NCBI RefSeq assembly: GCF_003334335.1
Contig: NZ_QOWQ01000038.1
Reading direction: 5' to 3' (one strand)
Source: Escherichia coli
GTDB lineage: Bacteria > Pseudomonadota > Gammaproteobacteria > Enterobacterales > Enterobacteriaceae
Length of the DNA: 40,690 nt
Translations under genes and position numbers: made by a program
Part shown: positions 1 to 19,492 of the stretch, piece after piece
Position numbering within the stretch: the stretch's first letter is position 1
How the letters are laid out: every line of letters begins with the position of its first letter
The notes under the pieces: model-generated
Seen by the model: the letters and a program-made list of their open reading frames with translations, nothing else
Database searches by the model: none
Told to the model about the DNA's origin: nothing

Positions 1-480
1 TGGGTTACCGATGTTACTGAATTTGCAGTCAATGGGCGCAAGCTGTATTTGTCTCCAGTAATAGATCTCTTCAACAACGAAGTTATTTCTTACAGCCTTT
101 CGGAAAGACCAGTGATGAACATGGTTGAGAATATGCTCGATCAGGCATTCAAAAAGCTTAATCCTCACGAGCATCCTGTTCTGCACTCTGACCAGGGATG
201 GCAGTATCGTATGAGAAGATATCAAAATATCCTTAAAGAACATGGTATTAAACAAAGCATGTCCAGAAAAGGCAATTGTCTGGATAATGCTGTGGTGGAG
301 TGTTTCTTTGGAACCTTAAAGTCGGAGTGTTTTTATCTTGATGAGTTCAGTAATATAAGCGAACTGAAGGATGCTGTTACGGAATATATTGAATACTACA
401 ACAGCAGAAGAATTAGCCTGAAATTAAAAGGTCTGACTCCAATTGAATATCGGAATCAGACCTATATGCCTCGTGTTTAA
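1..480 (+). CDS. insK: IS3-family transposase OrfB (InsK of IS150), C-terminal part; 5' end lies outside the window
   Basis: Frame 1 is open from nt 1 (WVTDVTEF...). DDE-type integrase core motifs are visible: [30 protein letters not shown]. Stop at 478-480. Confidence 0.85.
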
Positions 481-506
481 CTGTCCAACTTTTTGGGGTC
501 AGTACA
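1..506 (+). mobile_element. IS150 (IS3 family) insertion sequence, 3' portion truncated by the window edge, including the right terminal inverted repeat
   Basis: Transposase orfB reading frame is open from nt 1. The sequence ctgtccaactttttggggtcagtaca ends at 506, whose reverse complement TGTACTGACCCC... is a typical IS3-family TG...CA terminus. IS150 sits next to glyS in K-12 (recall). Confidence 0.8.
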
Positions 507-713
507 AACTTTGATTTATAGTCAGGTGGGGCTTTTCTCTGTCTGCCTTTCGGTGAATACCTGAGACAAACAGTCTCAAGCACCCGTGGCTATTCTAGCT
601 TAATAAGTTTGTTTCTTCTCCTTGATATAATCCTAAAAAAATCTCATAAAATTAATATATGAGATAATCTTTATTCAGCAGAAGATTATTAAAGGTTGCT
701 GTATTATTTAGCG

Positions 714-2837: not shown

Positions 2838-3749
2838 TTACTTATCTTTGTTGCACATCGGGAAGCCGAGGGCTTCACGGGAAGCGTAGTATGCTTCTGC
2901 CACTGCTTTGGTCAGGGTGCGAATGCGCAGAATGTAGCGCTGACGCTCGGTGACGGAGATGGCTTTACGCGCATCCAGCAGGTTGAAGCTGTGGGCGGCT
3001 TTCAGAATACGCTCGTAGGCTGGCAGCGGCAGCGGATTTTCCAGCGCCAGCAGCTGCTGCGCTTCTTTCTCGTACTGCTCGAAGCAGGTGAACAGGAAGT
3101 CCACATCCGCGTATTCGAAGTTGTAAGTGGACTGCTCCACTTCGTTCTGATGGAACACGTCGCCGTAGGTGGTTTTACCCAGCGGGCCGTCGCTCCAGAC
3201 CAGGTCGTAAACGCTGTCTACGCCCTGAATGTACATGGCCAGACGTTCCAGACCGTAGGTGATCTCGCCGGTAACCGGTTTACACTCCAGACCACCAACC
3301 TGCTGGAAGTAAGTGAACTGCGTCACTTCCATGCCGTTCAGCCACACTTCCCAGCCCAGTCCCCAGGCACCCAGCGTCGGGTTTTCCCAGTTATCTTCCA
3401 CGAAACGGATGTCGTGAATAGTCGGGTCCATGCCCAGCTCTTTCAGAGAACCGAGGTACAGCTCCTGAATATTGTCCGGCGATGGCTTAATGACCACCTG
3501 GAACTGATAGTAGTGCTGTAAACGGTTGGGGTTTTCGCCGTAGCGACCATCGGTCGGGCGACGAGAAGGCTGAACATAAGCAGCCGCCATCGGTTCTGGC
3601 CCCAGCGCGCGCAGACAGGTCATTGGGTGAGAGGTTCCCGCGCCGACTTCCATGTCCAATGGTTGAACAATGGTGCAGCCCTGGCGAGCCCAGTAATCCT
3701 GTAAGGTCAGGATCAAGCCCTGGAAGGTCCTGGTATCAAACTTTTGCAT
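2838..3749 (-). CDS. glyQ: Glycine--tRNA ligase alpha subunit
   Basis: 303-aa ORF recognised as GlyQ ([25 protein letters not shown]...). Confidence 0.97.
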
Positions 3750-5313: not shown

Positions 5314-5318
5314 GTAAA

Positions 5319-5346
5319 AGCCCGGTCACATTGGACTGACCGGGCT
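5319..5346. terminator. Bidirectional hairpin terminator between convergent wecH and yiaA
   Basis: 10-bp perfect inverted repeat agcccggtca / tgaccgggct with an 8-nt loop, 6 nt after the wecH stop and 9 nt after the yiaA stop. Confidence 0.5.
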
Positions 5347-5354
5347 TACGTGAG

Positions 5355-5792
5355 TTATTCGCTGTATTCTTCCTGGGTAACCTGTGTTTCTTTTGGTGGG
5401 TTTATTCCGGCATCACGAATATTTTTCTGCACCGCTACTGCACCAAACAAGCTTAAGAAGAAAGCCAGTCCATAAAAACCTTTTTCGCTGAGTAATAATG
5501 TCGCATTCCACAGACCTACCATCAGTAATGCAACAGAGATAATAAAGACAGTCAGGCAGGTCATATAATAAATGGAAGTGGTCGGTATGCCTTCATACTT
5601 GTCCCGAACGGTCTTTTGATAAGACGCCGCAGAAAACAGTCCTAATACCAGTACGGCAAAATAATATCCTTTTTCATTTAACTGCATCTCTGCATTCCAT
5701 AGCCCTAACAGATAGGTAACGATACCACCAACGAGAGCTATCCATGACACAATACTAAAGGCCGGTGAATAGGTTGATATTTTGTTGTCCAT
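5355..5792 (-). CDS. yiaA: Inner membrane protein YiaA (YiaAB two-domain family)
   Basis: ORF-track frame 5355..5795. Second ATG chosen to give about 145 aa. Hydrophobic, predicted multi-TM. Confidence 0.8.
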
Positions 5793-5837
5793 CACAGTAT
5801 TCCTTTCATTCCTGAATATGTAAGAGCTTTATGTTGC

Positions 5838-6179
5838 TCATGCCGAGCGAAACAAACGCATTTGACCAAACAAGCAGACAAAAAAGGCGATGGGATAGAT
5901 CACCATTTCATAAGTATTGATAGGTGCGTTTAAAACACCGATAAACAAGAGACCGATAGTGATTAACGCAACTAACTGGCAGATATGGGTAAAAAAATCA
6001 TCCAGTTGCCCGAGTTTTTCTGCGCGAAGATATGCATAGTTGCCAAAAGTTGCTGTCATTAACACGCCAAGAAAATAGCCTTTTCCACTTAACAATGGGC
6101 ATGAGATCCATAGCCCAACCAGATAAACCAGCGCCCCGACAACAAATAATAGTTTTGCCACAGTCTTTGAGGTTTTCAT
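5838..6179 (-). CDS. yiaB: Inner membrane protein YiaB (paralog of YiaA)
   Basis: ORF-track frame 5838..6221. Internal ATG at 6177-6179 (MKTSKTVAKLLF...) is preceded by a GGAG Shine-Dalgarno and gives 113 aa. Confidence 0.8.
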   Translation of the reverse strand: MKTSKTVAKLLFVVGALVYLVGLWISCPLLSGKGYFLGVLMTATFGNYAYLRAEKLGQLDDFFTHICQLVALITIGLLFIGVLNAPINTYEMVIYPIAFFVCLFGQMRLFRSA

Positions 6180-6315
6180 AACGATCTCCATATCTACCAG
6201 CGATACATTACGAGTAACCAACGAAAGACAAAACTGAAAAATGCCATTAACAAATGATTTTCAGAATAAATTCATACTAAATATTAATTAATTACTGAGA
6301 TATATAGATGTGAAT

Positions 6316-6345
6316 TATCCCCCACCCGGTCAGGCAGGGGATAAC
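6316..6345 (-). terminator. Candidate xylAB terminator hairpin
   Basis: Inverted repeat ttatcccc / ggggataa (8 bp, 14-nt loop) directly after the xylB stop, followed on the - strand by an A/T-rich tract. Weak U-tract. Confidence 0.35.
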
Positions 6346-6347
6346 GT

Positions 6348-19395: not shown

Positions 19396-19492
19396 CCTGA
19401 TGCGCTACGCTTATCAGGCCTACATGATTTCTGCAATATATTGAATTTGGAAGAATTTGTAGGCCGGATAAGGCGTTTACGCCGCATCTGGC
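19396..19492. repeat. BIME: two inverted REP elements
   Basis: gcctgatgcgctacgcttatcaggcctac (19396-19424) and gtaggccggataaggcgtttacgccgcatctggc (19459-19492). Confidence 0.65.

Follow-up and report, generated by a model that had tools for sequence, protein, structure and literature searches.

What does it mean that two related, hydrophobic membrane proteins are encoded side by side between the xylose genes and the gene for an enterobacterial common antigen (ECA) acetyltransferase: do they act as a pair, do they serve either neighbour, or does their position only reflect descent? The question is posed by yiaB and yiaA, minus-strand genes within positions 5355-6221 of a 40,690-nucleotide stretch of Escherichia coli DNA (contig NZ_QOWQ01000038.1, RefSeq assembly GCF_003334335.1; hereafter the window). 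We found that both proteins are internally duplicated, that the two genes are not obligate partners and that their placement between xylAB and wecH is an accident of lineage. The account that we consider probable as a whole combines the identity, evolution and independence of the genes with a predicted topology and an interfacial mechanism for YiaA, the last of which we put forward with low confidence.

Identity and origin of the two genes

The two open reading frames (ORFs) that an ORF list gives for the minus strand of this interval are the E. coli K-12 MG1655 annotations yiaA (b3562, product name 'PF05360 family inner membrane protein YiaA') and yiaB (b3563), and both protein sequences exactly match the clusters YIAA_ECOLI and YIAB_ECOLI. 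The window and MG1655 differ at 4 of about 14,000 aligned positions (~14 kb), none of them within yiaA or yiaB; the single-base differences lie at 3607, 4000, 8774 and 11169 and leave the window K-12-like but not identical to NC_000913.3. By megablast, the locus was found in all 5,426 complete E. coli genomes and was chromosomal every time; in 123 of the 5,426, no single match covered at least 80% of it. yiaB and yiaA are known E. coli core genes and parallel-oriented YiaAB-family paralogs. The pair, the family and the lack of a known function already stand in the E. coli annotation, and the locus is in that respect an ordinary feature.

One flank of the pair holds glyQ, ysaB and wecH, the last convergent with yiaA, and the other flank holds xylB and xylA. 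An initial annotation, made from the letters of the window, had reported two adjoining same-strand YiaAB-family genes between xyl genes and an ECA acetyltransferase gene, and the MG1655 annotation together with PF05360 and NCBIfam matches bears out genes, family and neighbours alike. Its finer detail needed correction. The coding strand reads xylB, yiaB, yiaA, so that yiaB is the upstream gene. The yiaA end of the range, 5355, was right, whereas the yiaB end, 6221, is a mechanical TTG start; yiaB orthologues begin at the Met equivalent to the annotated ATG at 6179. Similarly, the reported 42-bp spacer is accurate if measured from an in-frame GTG at 5795, just upstream of the annotated yiaA ATG (5792), from which the spacer measures 45 bp.

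The pairwise alignment that had been named beforehand as a check on YiaA and YiaB gave 31% identity over 110 residues (BLASTP, E 2e-12), confirming at the level of sequence that the two are true paralogs of the PF05360 / TC 9.B.44 family. Whole-protein NCBIfam scores were 197.8 bits for YiaA (NF008482) and 171.6 bits for YiaB (NF008492), above the respective curated cut-offs of 150 and 130 bits. YiaA contains two PF05360 domains (E 1.1e-20 and 1.7e-18); in YiaB the first repeat is clear (E 4.7e-9) and the second weak (E 0.6). All four two-helix units, this one included, nevertheless line up in register on a G-L-W-N-A...E-K-G-Y/F-Y core, and therefore each protein is an internally duplicated two-helix hairpin and the duplication that gave the gene pair came later. 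The YiaAB family (TC 9.B.44) has previously been placed among families that arose by duplication from two to four transmembrane segments (PMC3061005). The motif that links the helices of a unit, GLWNA...EKG(Y/F)Y, is found in both YiaA repeats, is altered in YiaB repeat 1 (GLWISCPLLSGKGYF) and is gone in repeat 2 (GVLNAPINTYEMVIY). An assignment to anti-phage defence or to a phage protein was rejected: the PADLOC defence models gave no match for YiaA or YiaB, and the best PHROGs matches, with E of at least 0.013, were to families of unassigned function.

YiaA is the ancestral and strongly constrained form, present as a single stand-alone gene in many phyla, between which its identity is about 55-66%. 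A HMMER search over 1.84 billion cluster representatives returned 524 clusters (50% identity) at E <= 1e-3, which makes this a family of modest size. Among 32 diverse aligned members, which were not selected by motif, residues K60, R63, D64, E103, G105, F116, Q122, K123 and D127 are near-invariant; with E40, K41 and G42 they make up two repeated motifs, (N/S)EKG(Y/F)Y in the short loops, where the full pattern is GLWNA-x4-5-(N/S)EKG(Y/F)Y, and QKxxRD after helices 2 and 4. Accessory domains in the 32 relatives were singletons only (DUF5655, DUF2510 and a MiaB-like N-terminus, probably chimeric), with none recurrent. A genome scan based on a 9-sequence alignment, with search patterns that included SEKGF and QKN peptides, recovered loci from Enterobacterales, Acinetobacter, Xanthomonas, many betaproteobacteria, very many Bacteroidota, Chloroflexi, Acidobacteria, Neobacillus and others. 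Outside Enterobacterales, the best segments were 50-66% identical to E. coli YiaA, and across 66 of the best-matching loci the median was 61%.

YiaB, by comparison of the recovered sequences, is a duplicate confined to Enterobacteriaceae: named matches came from Escherichia, Citrobacter and Klebsiella only, and one Salmonella locus also has a yiaB-like gene. Identity to E. coli YiaB falls from 82% in E. albertii and 68% in E. fergusonii to 57-58% in Citrobacter and Salmonella and 43-46% in Klebsiella; for YiaA, Citrobacter and Salmonella give 82-84% and K. pneumoniae 75%. Nonsynonymous divergence (dN) between E. coli and Citrobacter was 0.34 for yiaB versus 0.10 for yiaA, 0.095 for xylB and 0.11 for wecH, and YiaB evolves about 3.5 times faster. 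An enterobacterial contig (L093 2052-2432) illustrates this fast divergence with a YiaB-type protein 33% identical to E. coli YiaB beside a YiaA that is 71% identical to its counterpart. As synonymous divergence (dS) was saturated between E. coli and Citrobacter, dN/dS was computed within Escherichia only, against a divergent Escherichia genome; the values of 0.09 for yiaB and 0.07 for yiaA show that both genes are under purifying selection.

Such rapid change could also mean that yiaB is a functionless duplicate in decay towards a pseudogene. Its protein is the fastest-evolving in the locus, both QKxxRD motifs are missing, the E. coli protein also lacks the second loop motif and has a barely detectable second Pfam repeat, and the gene is absent in Phytobacter and interrupted by IS1 in some isolates. 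However, the locus is universal among the complete E. coli genomes, the dN/dS within Escherichia is low, and the YiaB-specific loop motif CP(L/T)(L/F)S(G/E)KGY is kept in Escherichia, Citrobacter, Salmonella and Klebsiella. Moreover, yiaB is the copy retained at the locus where yiaA is missing, and AlphaFold2 (AF2) gives its product as a confident four-helix bundle. We therefore regard decay as unlikely and read YiaB as a diverged paralog with a conserved loop of its own, CPL(L/F)SGKGYF.

Independence from each other and from the neighbours

Phylogenetic profiling, one of the checks proposed for the locus, set YiaA, spread over many phyla, apart from YiaB, restricted to Enterobacteriaceae, and found either gene missing at the locus in relatives. 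E. coli shares the order xylB-yiaB-yiaA-wecH with Citrobacter, K. pneumoniae and Salmonella. No yiaA lies at the locus in E. fergusonii, E. albertii and one K. oxytoca assembly, where the order is xylB-yiaB-wecH or yiaB-wecH and yiaB adjoins a convergent wecH. Phytobacter massiliensis keeps yiaA-wecH, and two unrelated genes replace yiaB. Insertion of IS1 has split yiaA in one natural E. coli isolate and yiaB in another (NZ_CP016404.1 and NZ_CM149871.1), and a ΔyiaB strain serves as a laboratory chassis (PMC11957790). These separate losses, the IS1 splits and the ΔyiaB chassis together show that yiaA and yiaB are individually dispensable and are not obligate partners, and that neither is tied to xylose or ECA genes; their place between xylAB and wecH reflects synteny that arose by accident in this lineage, not a functional link. 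As a separate observation, the xylB-yiaA gap of P. massiliensis (L009 4438-5891) holds ORFs of 179 and 305 amino acids (aa) that by eye resemble an isochorismatase-family hydrolase and a GlxA/AraC-type regulator.

These observations bear directly on the idea that YiaA and YiaB form an obligate hetero-oligomer in the manner of small multidrug resistance (SMR)-type pairs such as MdtI/MdtJ or ArnE/ArnF. That idea would account for two adjoining same-strand genes 45 bp apart with no hairpin between them, and for a tandem kept in E. coli, Citrobacter, Salmonella and K. pneumoniae. AF2 modelling of a YiaB-(G4S)4-YiaA fusion returned an intermediate predicted template modelling score (pTM) of 0.61, which, having neither a control nor an inter-domain error map beside it, says nothing on contact. 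Yet YiaA had no YiaB-like neighbour at any locus examined outside Enterobacteriaceae, each gene occurs without the other beside it (yiaB in E. fergusonii, E. albertii and the K. oxytoca assembly, yiaA in Phytobacter), IS1 disrupts either gene singly in natural isolates, and the very unequal evolutionary rates argue against a tightly co-evolving interface. A hetero-oligomer is, in our estimate, improbable, and we treat the two proteins as independent paralogs.

A link to the neighbours fares worse still. Were yiaB-yiaA a 3' extension of the xylAB operon with a function related to xylose, for instance membrane adaptation or sugar flux, the xylB-yiaB linkage kept in Enterobacteriaceae would be expected, and the poor U-tract of the hairpin behind xylB makes read-through into yiaB possible, so that xylose-induced transcription past that hairpin is conceivable. 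A xylose-engineering fragment used in Zymomonas indeed comprises E. coli xylA-xylB-yiaB'-yiaA' (PMC5930841), but it carries yiaB'-yiaA' merely as passengers. E. albertii has yiaB with no xylAB upstream, the yiaA homologues of Yersinia (between metJ and rpmE) and Hafnia (a lone gene) sit in contexts unrelated to that of E. coli, and a 168-bp A+T-rich gap separates xylB from yiaB, which, like yiaA, has been reported as a separate transcription unit (PMC10127797). All-against-all clustering of 903 crude ORFs from 80 loci in many phyla found no xyl or wecH gene recurring beside yiaA homologues outside Enterobacteriaceae; xylB was seen solely in Enterobacteriaceae loci among those compared, which leaves no xylose linkage beyond close relatives. 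We consider an extended xyl operon very unlikely.

The same comparison tells against a partnership with WecH in the O-acetylation of ECA. Every Enterobacteriaceae locus examined has wecH as the adjoining, convergent gene, and in E. coli wecH shares a terminator hairpin with yiaA. But genes that converge cannot be co-transcribed, yiaA homologues abound in Bacteroidota, betaproteobacteria and other groups where nothing like wecH lies beside them and are placed elsewhere in Yersinia and Hafnia, and no acyltransferase cluster recurs next to yiaA homologues in the 80 loci. This makes a role with WecH very unlikely. The initial annotation's remark that the pair has no obvious link to its neighbours accordingly stands, supported by the Yersinia and Hafnia contexts, the neighbour clustering and the E. 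albertii locus.

Beyond the synteny of close relatives, the sole recurrent neighbour was a 186-aa ORF that, in 12 Bacteroidota loci spread over several genera, lies directly upstream of the yiaA homologue and in the same orientation. It matched Fnr/CRP models weakly (E 1e-10 and 1e-6), far below their curated cut-offs, and hints at a Crp/Fnr-type regulator and at conditional expression of yiaA.

Predicted topology, expression and a candidate mechanism

The proteins had been described as hydrophobic inner-membrane proteins, and topology prediction agrees. Hydropathy profiles and AF2 models depict both as four-helix inner-membrane proteins of ~13-16 kDa, the helices paired into two hairpins. For YiaA, the AF2 model, to which the 32-sequence alignment was the input, had a predicted local distance difference test score (pLDDT) of 92.4 and a pTM of 0.84; its four helices (Table 1) are linked by two 4-residue loops and one 6-residue turn. 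In the YiaB part of the fusion model the helices span residues 5-26, 30-55, 61-84 and 89-114, with block-mean pLDDT of ~81-93. For an N-in/C-in arrangement, lysine and arginine counts from sequence are 7 inside versus 2 outside in YiaA and 7 inside versus 1 outside in YiaB, and the positive-inside rule predicts this same orientation for both. With this topology the EKG loops would face the periplasm and the QKxxRD motifs the cytoplasm. No charged residue lies in the helix cores of either protein. Comparison with solved structures returned nothing specifically similar to YiaA or YiaB, and among the 50 AFDB50 structural matches listed, all were family members.

No functional study of yiaA or yiaB was found in the searchable literature, in line with the earlier statement that their function is not documented. 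Many literature matches to 'yiaA' were spurious: they were typos for the phylotyping gene yjaA, referred to a YIDD motif mutated to YIAA, or arose from text mining of 'IAA'. yiaB is listed among chemical-genetic hits for silver (PMC6071238) and was a first-round alanine-exporter candidate that was dropped in later rounds (PMC10299036). Reports on expression include activation of yiaB and yiaA, as separate transcription units, by mutant Lrp (PMC10127797), placement of yiaA under sigma-32 control (PMC10519446), a SoxS chromatin immunoprecipitation peak at Salmonella yiaB (PMC10268841), 26-fold upregulation of a YiaAB-domain gene in Variovorax biofilm (PMC7494200) and upregulation of yiaB in Klebsiella after exposure to an antimicrobial peptide (PMC12210888). 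A literature search on sigma-32 returned nothing on yiaA.

We propose, with low confidence, that YiaA is a small, possibly oligomeric membrane protein that would act through interfacial sites. We infer an interfacial role because there is no buried charge, conservation is concentrated at the two interfaces and very high across phyla, no partner gene is conserved and expression appears conditional. What these sites bind may be universal, for example the head groups of lipids, or else a small ion or solute, and YiaA would be expressed conditionally and act during proteotoxic or membrane stress. In YiaB, as a diverged variant, function at the cytoplasmic face would be altered.

Several points weigh against this account. 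Conservation percentages over the 66 scan loci are inflated at SEKGF and QKN, which were themselves scan patterns. The apparent absence of yiaA from E. fergusonii, E. albertii and K. oxytoca refers to this locus alone. Sigma-32 control of yiaA was not confirmed from sequence, as no good sigma-32 promoter match was present, and the evidence for stress expression is scattered and comes from different organisms. A more ambitious version, which we hold to be doubtful though conceivable, casts the YiaA family as a universally constrained interface protein with paired periplasmic EKG and cytoplasmic QKxxRD sites that would be switched on by dedicated sensors (Crp/Fnr-like in Bacteroidota, stress regulators in enterics), and the fast-evolving enterobacterial YiaB as a neofunctionalised or compensating paralog. 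If true, such a YiaB would explain the relatives with yiaB only or yiaA only at the locus. As a discovery the locus carries little weight, since genes, family and uncharacterised status were already annotated, but the comparative picture offers a sharper starting point: further study can centre on YiaA as the conserved member, with YiaB its fast-evolving enterobacterial offshoot, E40, E103 and both QKxxRD motifs are singled out for mutation, and E. albertii, E. fergusonii and Phytobacter supply natural single-gene backgrounds.

A hairpin between the convergent stops of wecH and yiaA, outside the range 5355-6221, had been described as strong and bidirectional. Its stem, an 11-bp perfect inverted repeat around an 8-nt loop, is strong on both strands (-21.2 kcal/mol, z -5.1, minus; -24.6 kcal/mol, z -3.7, plus), but only the minus-strand RNA ends in a U-run (UUUUACUU), the tail on the plus-strand, wecH side being ACGUGAG. 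The hairpin would thus fit the canonical form of a terminator for yiaA, while wecH has at most a hairpin without a U-run, and the term 'bidirectional' is justified in part only; a consensus terminator scan left it uncalled on either strand. An inverted-repeat search found no hairpin within the yiaB-yiaA spacer (5793-5837), and a terminator-like site inside yiaB (5886-5904) was at chance expectation. Promoter scans upstream of both genes gave nothing convincing for sigma-70 (best match in the xylB-yiaB intergenic region, 9 of 12) or sigma-32. Rfam had no match in or beside yiaB-yiaA; elsewhere in the window, matches above the gathering score at 446-585 (minus strand) and 19416-19458 (minus strand) correspond to sok antitoxin RNA and the small RNA ES036 (CssrF), the sok match adjoining the IS150 end and sokA pseudogene of MG1655.

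Table 1. Features of the yiaB-yiaA locus and of compared loci. Positions are those of the window unless a compared locus (L) is given; TM, transmembrane helix.
Feature	Position	Strand	Details
yiaA coding sequence	5355..5792	-	145 aa plus stop; annotated ATG; b3562; NF008482; exact match to YIAA_ECOLI
YiaA two-helix repeat 1	5601..5759	-	aa 12-64: TM1, loop, TM2, QKTVRD; PF05360 E 1.1e-20; AF2 helices 10-33, 38-66
YiaA two-helix repeat 2	5412..5570	-	aa 75-127: TM3, loop, TM4, QKNIRD; PF05360 E 1.7e-18; AF2 helices 73-96, 101-130
yiaB coding sequence	5838..6179	-	113 aa plus stop; ATG after GGAG; b3563; NF008492; exact match to YIAB_ECOLI
YiaB two-helix repeat 1	6027..6164	-	aa 6-51; YiaB-specific loop GLWISCPLLSGKGYF; PF05360 E 4.7e-9
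YiaB two-helix repeat 2	5865..5990	-	aa 64-105; degenerate GVLNAPINTYEMVIY; lacks W, EKG and QKxxRD; PF05360 E 0.6
yiaB-yiaA spacer	5793..5837	-	45 bp; AAAGGAA Shine-Dalgarno-like run
Shared hairpin	5318..5347	.	Between convergent stops of wecH (5313) and yiaA (5355); arms 5318-5328, 5337-5347
xylB terminator hairpin	6314..6345	-	14-bp stem; poor U-tract UUCACAUC; -21.5 kcal/mol, z -3.9
xylB-yiaB intergenic region	6180..6347	-	168 bp, A+T-rich; presumed yiaB promoter region
yiaB-only loci (E. fergusonii, E. albertii, K. oxytoca)	L087 4001-4342; L088 4001-4342; L086 4001-4381		
IS1-split loci	L091 556-1770; L092 1039-2157		NZ_CP016404.1; NZ_CM149871.1
186-aa Crp/Fnr-like gene (putative)	L025 5335-5895		Equivalents in L019, L031, L032, L048, L058, L060, L061, L064, L071, L075, L080

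Comparison with known systems

The closest comparison is with YIAA_ECOLI and YIAB_ECOLI (b3562 and b3563) themselves, from which the pair in the window shows no difference: the sequences are identical, and so is the placement between xylB and wecH. As in the PF05360 / TC 9.B.44 family at large, each of the two proteins has the two-helix unit twice, with a conserved linking loop, and all 32 of the 32 diverse relatives match the model. E. coli YiaB departs from the family in its weak repeat 2 (E 0.6) and in the absence of QKxxRD, which is near-invariant in YiaA-type members. The putative Crp/Fnr-type regulator of Bacteroidota, lying directly upstream of the yiaA homologue, resembles a regulator with an adjoining target, whereas the E. 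coli locus has no such regulator.

SMR-type pairs such as MdtI/MdtJ and ArnE/ArnF are small four-helix membrane proteins encoded by adjoining paralogous genes, and YiaA and YiaB are like them in size, helix number and gene arrangement. Membership in the SMR family was nevertheless rejected: YiaA and YiaB have no Pfam SMR match and no membrane-embedded acidic residue, helix 1 of both being free of acidic residues where SMR-type proteins would have a conserved membrane-embedded glutamate. They differ from these pairs, too, in that each protein arose by internal duplication and that relatives can carry one gene independently of the other.

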